Notes under the pieces: generated by a model
The model's database searches: none
Seen by the model: the letters and a program-made list of their open reading frames with translations, nothing else
Told to the model about the DNA's origin: nothing
Shown here: in pieces, positions 24,347-24,659 of the stretch
Layout: every line of letters begins with the position of its first letter
How positions within the stretch are numbered: the first letter of the stretch is position 1
Position numbers and translations under genes: made by a program
Sequence record: OZ335955.1
Length of the DNA: 47,047 nucleotides
Reading direction: 5' to 3' (one strand)
Origin: a phage

Positions 24347-24506
24347 TTGTTAATAACTTGTTTATATTACATGCCATTCTTTTCGCACAAAGCAACAGAT
24401 ACATCACGCAACTGCTCTTTGGTCATATCCTTGCGCGCATAAACCATTTCTACGATAGCAAGTCCGATTATTTCTGCTGATTCGTTGTTTTTTGTGGAAC
24501 CCTTAA

Positions 24507-24659
24507 CTACCACCTCGGAAGATTCTTGCTGATACCGTTATCGCGAGCATCGGCAGTGTTTAATGCGATGTCGCCAATGTTCTTGCACACCTCGGAAGTT
24601 GCTACAGCAGAGAAAGAGGAAACCAATAGTGCAGATGCGATCAACATTTTAATTTTCAT
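24507..24659 (-). CDS. small secreted protein, apparently frameshift-truncated
   Basis: signal-peptide-like MKIKMLIASALLVSSFSAVA; GAGGTGA RBS; protein-like reading continues to 24367 in another frame. Confidence 0.3.
   Translation of the reverse strand: MKIKMLIASALLVSSFSAVATSEVCKNIGDIALNTADARDNGISKNLPRW

Follow-up and report, generated by a model that had tools for sequence, protein, structure and literature searches.

A one-base deletion within a short direct repeat interrupts the sequenced gene for a small exported siphophage protein

The minus-strand cassette and its genomic setting

The window, by which we mean the whole 47,047-base stretch of DNA that was analysed, looks like the complete genome of a virulent siphophage of the Skate/Sf11/DS8/Bas81 group, the members of which infect Salmonella, E. 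coli and Shigella. Its first gene encodes the large terminase and its last an HNH protein, and its identity to GenBank relatives is about 90-92%, none of them being near-identical. The locus considered here is a four-gene minus-strand cassette that encodes, in order, an exported protein, an Imm-family protein, a 47-aa protein and a DUF551 protein. Its neighbours, on the other strand, are the major tail gene at one end and the DUF6246/tape-measure genes at the other, a location that is shared with the relatives that carry members of phrog_2315, and its features are collected in Table 1.

Table 1. Features of the cassette and of the disrupted gene, in window coordinates
Feature	Position	Strand	Details and basis
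Sigma-70-like promoter, TTGACA-17-TAGATT	24699..24727	-	Putative cassette promoter; consensus match only (10/12 positions)
Shine-Dalgarno-like GAGGTG	24664..24669	-	4 nt upstream of ATG 24659; kept in all relatives
5' fragment of the disrupted gene	24507..24659	-	20-residue signal peptide plus 30 residues; premature TAG at 24509..24507; aligns to codons 1-47 of 97-aa homologues
Repeat copy 1, CTTCCGAGGTG	24588..24598	-	Codons T21-S-E-V24; possible template for the deletion
Repeat copy 2, CTTCCGAGGTG on the coding strand	24511..24521	-	Perfect only through the deletion
One-base deletion site	24518..24519	-	CTT-G-CC in relatives (coding strand), CTTCC in the window; alignments and 21 distinct relatives
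3' remainder of the gene (codons 48-97 and stop)	24367..24518	-	-1 frame; otherwise undamaged
Imm-like superinfection immunity gene	24140..24334	-	Pfam PF14373 at 8.9e-17; phrog_1039; annotations of relatives
47-aa hypothetical gene	24000..24143	-	phrog_17424 at 8e-36
DUF551 gene, last in the cassette	23803..24003	-	PF04448 at 2.2e-11
Bidirectional terminator-like hairpin	23780..23799	.	Closes the cassette and the major tail gene; terminator annotated at the same place in phage Skate

Several further observations describe the setting of the cassette. Comparison with relatives L008, L009, L028 and L029 shows that the slot between the major tail and DUF6246 genes (23780-24760) is a mosaic hotspot, the contents of which vary among relatives and include the exported protein, imm, NinX, DUF551 and small membrane proteins. 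Within this slot lies a 15-nt inverted repeat (24306-24320 and 24481-24495), with one arm at the beginning of imm and the other midway through the disrupted gene; the arms are 87% complementary and 160 nt apart, and the match is probably due to chance. Two phage tRNA genes are found on the minus strand, Arg(TCT) at 22450-22525 and Ser(GCT) at 22532-22619, and tRNA-Arg and tRNA-Ser are annotated at the corresponding place in Bas81. Near the right end of the genome, the plus strand at 46459-46522 matches the Rfam int-alpA sRNA family RF02996 at gathering level (42.6 bits, E 1.4e-05).

One gene in two reading frames

Translation of the minus strand from ATG 24659 gives a 50-residue product, MKIKMLIASALLVSSFSAVATSEVCKNIGDIALNTADARDNGISKNLPRW, in which the signal peptide MKIKMLIASALLVSSFSAVA is followed by a mature part that runs from TSEVC to NLPRW and then stops, just as the original prediction had read this ORF. 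The signal peptide is of the standard type, with K2 and K4, a hydrophobic core and A-V-A as its cleavage motif, and the homologous leader in Vi II-E1 bears a SignalP annotation. A protein-like reading had also been proposed to go on in another frame as far as 24367, and this second frame proves to be the -1 frame, which is open from just upstream of the stop at 24507 to its own stop at 24367 and ends in EVVVKGSTKNNESAEIIGLAIVEMVYARKDMTKEQLRDVSVALCEKNGM. This 3' remainder is 98% identical to residues 49-98 of the Bas81 protein (tblastn), and none of its three DNA differences from the consensus changes an amino acid once the frame is restored. The window copy is thus split into a 50-aa and a 48-aa ORF, and the single uninterrupted 97-codon ORF is absent from the window owing to a one-base deletion that brings a stop codon into frame after codon 50.

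Codon 48 has lost a G on the coding strand (a C on the plus strand). The junction reads AATCTTGCCGAGG in the relatives and AATCTT-CCGAGG in the window; over the longer junction of the nine-relative DNA alignment the relatives read AATCTTGCCGAGGTGG and the window reads AATCTT-CCGAGGTGG. The one-base gap was scored against nine GenBank relatives and three ENA/Logan (metagenome) contigs, with 21 distinct relatives in all, and the extra base was present in 24 of the 24 related DNA sequences examined, where the frame is an uninterrupted 294 bp encoding 97 residues (one contig, L027, is frameshifted elsewhere in the gene). At the same place phage Skate has a single 294-bp CDS, gp83, annotated as 'Export Related?', and the same CDS is found in Bas81, DS8, KFS-SE2, Sf11, LPSTLL and Segz_1. 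A search of 5.8 billion proteins returned 131 homologues, and 118 of the 120 listed are exactly 97 residues long. The original prediction had supposed that a single-base indel splits a small secreted protein and that the intact form would be about 96 aa; the indel and the longer intact form are both borne out by these comparisons, with the length corrected to 97 aa. None of the homologues ends where the window's ORF ends, an outcome that would have spoken against the prediction.

When the missing base is restored, the 97-residue protein matches phrog_2315 at 3.5e-18 over residues 1-89, that is, across the break. Members of this family include Skate gp83 (YP_010053343), Bas81_0069 and Sf11 gp20. 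The restored sequence has 84-93% DNA identity and up to 96% protein identity to its relatives, with the same promoter-leader and the same signal peptide. Judged from these alignments, the interval 24367..24659 is one gene and not two, a disrupted member of phrog_2315 that would be either a pseudogene or the product of an error. A separate short annotation is seen in the record of Salmonella phage INT59 (OP745621.1), where the intact homologue at 328-661 has been annotated from an internal ATG as a 198-bp CDS; this is an annotation artefact and not a second disrupted allele. The same record also has a 123-bp ORF on the opposite strand that is probably spurious.

Could the two frames instead yield a functional product by recoding, either through programmed -1 ribosomal frameshifting or through termination and reinitiation at the overlapping GTG (24513)? 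The two frames do share a short overlap, GTGGTAG, with a GAGG motif ahead of it. Moreover, two overlapping frames in a tail-gene neighbourhood resemble the -1 frameshifting of phage tail chaperones of the lambda G/GT type. However, the present frames are on the wrong strand and in the wrong gene for that system, and the stretch that is open in both frames, AACGGTATCAGCAAGAATCTTCCGAGGTGGTAG, contains no X XXY YYZ slippery heptamer. The GAGG motif overlaps the GTG and so has the wrong spacing for initiation, and a reinitiated C-terminal half would have no signal peptide. All relatives use a single frame, such that the two-frame layout is not conserved. Recoding is for these reasons very improbable.

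The direct repeat and the origin of the deletion

The 11-mer CACCTCGGAAG occurs exactly twice in the 47-kb window, at the two positions that the original prediction had given, and this repeat pattern was reproduced in 0 of 100 dinucleotide-preserving shuffles. The copies are 77 nt apart and their identity extends to 14 of 16 positions. The frameshift had been placed between the two copies; the alignments place it inside the second of them (24518/24519). At this second site the relatives read CTTGCCGAGGTG, and loss of the G converts that sequence to a perfect copy of CTTCCGAGGTG, so that the mutation turns an imperfect repeat into an exact match of a nearby template, as is expected of a templated mutation at a quasi-repeat. 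When one base at a time was deleted from the restored gene, over all 294 positions, and direct repeats of at least 11 bp were scored within the local 900 bp, only 3 of the 294 deletions (2 distinct events) produced one. The upstream repeat site is itself polymorphic, and the window's variant was found in 1 of the 21 relatives (L027), whose second site differs. The window is therefore the only genome, in comparison with the 21 relatives, whose two sites differed solely by the lost G.

A perfect 11-bp direct repeat with copies 77 nt apart inside one gene also suggests a recombination scar, in which unequal exchange between the copies would have remodelled the gene, an alternative that had been raised together with the indel. 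Such an exchange would delete or duplicate the 77-nt unit, and what is found instead is that the interval between the copies is fully present, occurs once and is colinear with the relatives apart from one base. This explanation is barely credible. We likewise rejected a phase-variable contingency locus, as the lost G, flanked by T and C, is not part of a simple-sequence tract, and the other alleles of the gene (in GG and A6 runs) are single observations each.

The question is then whether the G was lost by the phage or by the sequence record. Misalignment mutagenesis has reportedly been described as a source of templated frameshifts at quasi-repeats in T4 rII and in E. coli, in work associated with Ripley and Lovett. 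The present case resembles those events in that a one-base change perfects an imperfect repeat from a template that lies 77 nt away on the same strand; it differs in that it is one natural event and lacks a mutation spectrum, and in that the classic hotspots are mostly quasi-palindromes. By analogy, transient misalignment of the template on the quasi-repeat during replication would have removed the G from codon 48, and translation from ATG 24659 would then reach TAG after 50 residues. There is no reason why a base-calling error made at random should follow a repeat 77 nt away, whereas a nascent strand that misaligns transiently on a quasi-repeat would do so.

The competing explanation is a sequencing or assembly error, in which the phage would carry an intact 97-residue gene and a base would have been dropped from the consensus. 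The allele occurs in the window sequence only: the 23-nt junction with the deletion had 0 exact matches in IMG/VR, GTDB genomes and JGI metagenomes, where the intact junction occurs 12 times in IMG/VR, and of the 116 phage records with a match to the 61 nt around it none was perfect, the best being 61/62 with one gap. The window's 50-aa product likewise had no record in the assemblies index. With neither junction nor product matched in the collections searched, the allele is private to the window sequence. The 3' half is perfectly preserved, with synonymous differences only, and two other public assemblies are frameshifted in the same gene at homopolymers and are possibly errors too. Such an undecayed 3' half would, on the sequence evidence, fit a very recent mutation (for example, one fixed in plaque purification) and an artefact equally well.

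Other observations point away from an error. The lost base lies in the context T-G-C, outside any homopolymer, and a random one-base error would give an 11-bp repeat with a chance of about 1%. All ORFs of two complete relatives, Bas81 and ST1UNAM, were used in a tblastn scan for frameshifts, and only the exported-protein gene was found to be disrupted in the 47-kb window, which indicates that the assembly is not error-ridden. In that scan, candidate sites near 1774, 2820, 7130, 7963 and 18760 were dismissed as intergenic indels or as divergent but intact ORFs, and at 28863-29235, where the ORFs seemed to leave a gap, there is an intact ORF of 164 aa. We consider an error an unlikely but still substantial alternative, and we favour a genuine recent mutation as the somewhat likelier of the two, on the grounds that the deletion perfects the quasi-repeat, the expected signature of template misalignment. 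This argument is post hoc, since it was the repeat that made the site conspicuous, and it concerns one event.

The exported protein and the consequences of the lesion

What would be lost with the 3' half of the gene can be judged from the features that the family conserves. A profile search of 1.8 billion representatives supplied distant relatives, and even in those that are only ~25-35% identical Cys25, Arg39 and Cys92 are invariant and Asp40, Gly42 and Tyr74 are near-invariant. The restored reading has the signal peptide, C25, R39-D40-x-G42, Y74 and C92, and of these hallmarks the 50-aa ORF as encoded keeps only the signal peptide, C25 and RDxG. In the AlphaFold2 model, which is confident for the mature part, four helices lie at residues 18-40, 45-55, 60-75 and 81-94, and the two invariant cysteines suggest that a disulfide likely joins the first and last helix. 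Beyond the signal peptide and helix 1, the truncated product ends a few residues into helix 2, and Tyr74 and Cys92 are lost. Because helices 2-4 are missing almost entirely, together with these two residues, the truncated product is very probably non-functional. A polar effect of the premature stop on the downstream imm is also possible, as 173 nt would be left untranslated.

No family in Pfam, NCBIfam or PADLOC was found for the exported protein or for its distant relatives, and the titles and abstract openings of the literature yielded nothing on the gene. The same fold was found in BFVD in many uncharacterised proteins of ~100 aa, of the exported or lipoprotein type, from phages of Burkholderia, Xanthomonas, Bordetella and Pseudomonas, and this fold search also identified VIP0031 of Vi II-E1, annotated as 'exported phage protein', as a divergent 112-aa member of the family with 33% identity. 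Two other distant members, P0123 (260 aa) and P0136 (198 aa), have a tandem two-domain arrangement in which the Cys...RDxG...Y...Cys module occurs twice.

The gene also shows an uneven distribution of silent variation. Among the 21 distinct relatives, diversity at third codon positions is 0.33-0.53 in codons 8-35 and 0.00-0.23 in codons 36-98 (24367-24555), and within the latter segment a 28-nt stretch, CAAAAAACAACGAATCAGCAGAAATAAT, is invariant in the ten-sequence DNA alignment. Possible reasons for the low diversity of codons 36-98 are a sweep by recombination and an embedded element at the nucleic-acid level, for instance a signal for imm expression.

The distribution of the gene among related phages describes a module that can be exchanged. 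Segzyviruses have the exported-protein gene without imm, phage BS5 lacks it and has imm with a different first gene, and Vi II-E1 has only the divergent 112-aa version at the locus. This mosaic pattern indicates that the gene is an exchangeable accessory module, and such a gene could be lost without harm to lytic growth. The two other frameshifted alleles, independent of the window's and of each other, are found in L027, a 45-kb Logan contig (ERR11865823, 1501-1795) in which a G insertion extends GG to GGG at codon 78, and in P0121, in which an A insertion extends A6 to A7 around codon 57; each has an 85-aa product. Both insertions are in homopolymer runs and could be errors; should they be real, they would add to the indications that the gene is dispensable.

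What might the intact protein do? One may reasonably guess, though only guess, that it acts at the envelope in host takeover or exclusion. In T4, Spackle (Sp, gp61.3) is the periplasmic partner of Imm in superinfection exclusion, and the protein described here resembles it in having about 97 aa, a signal peptide, a helical composition and cysteines, and in being encoded directly upstream of an Imm-family gene. A search for resemblance to Spackle in sequence or fold found none. A bolder proposal would hold that the intact protein belongs to a widespread disulfide-bonded four-helix periplasmic family found in phages of Proteobacteria, that it serves as an exclusion factor functionally analogous to Spackle beside Imm, and that the quasi-repeat is a mutational hotspot for switching it off; taken jointly, these statements are unlikely.

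The lesion itself is of an ordinary kind, either loss of function of an accessory gene by frameshift or an error in the consensus, and it leaves current understanding unchanged. For annotation, it means that the two short ORFs should be merged into a single frameshifted gene, marked as a pseudogene or for re-sequencing, and not be recorded as two hypothetical proteins. The quasi-repeat context provides a small, textbook-style example of how a frameshift could be templated. If the deletion is real, this phage would be a natural knock-out of an exported accessory protein encoded beside an Imm gene, and it could be compared as such with Bas81 or Skate.
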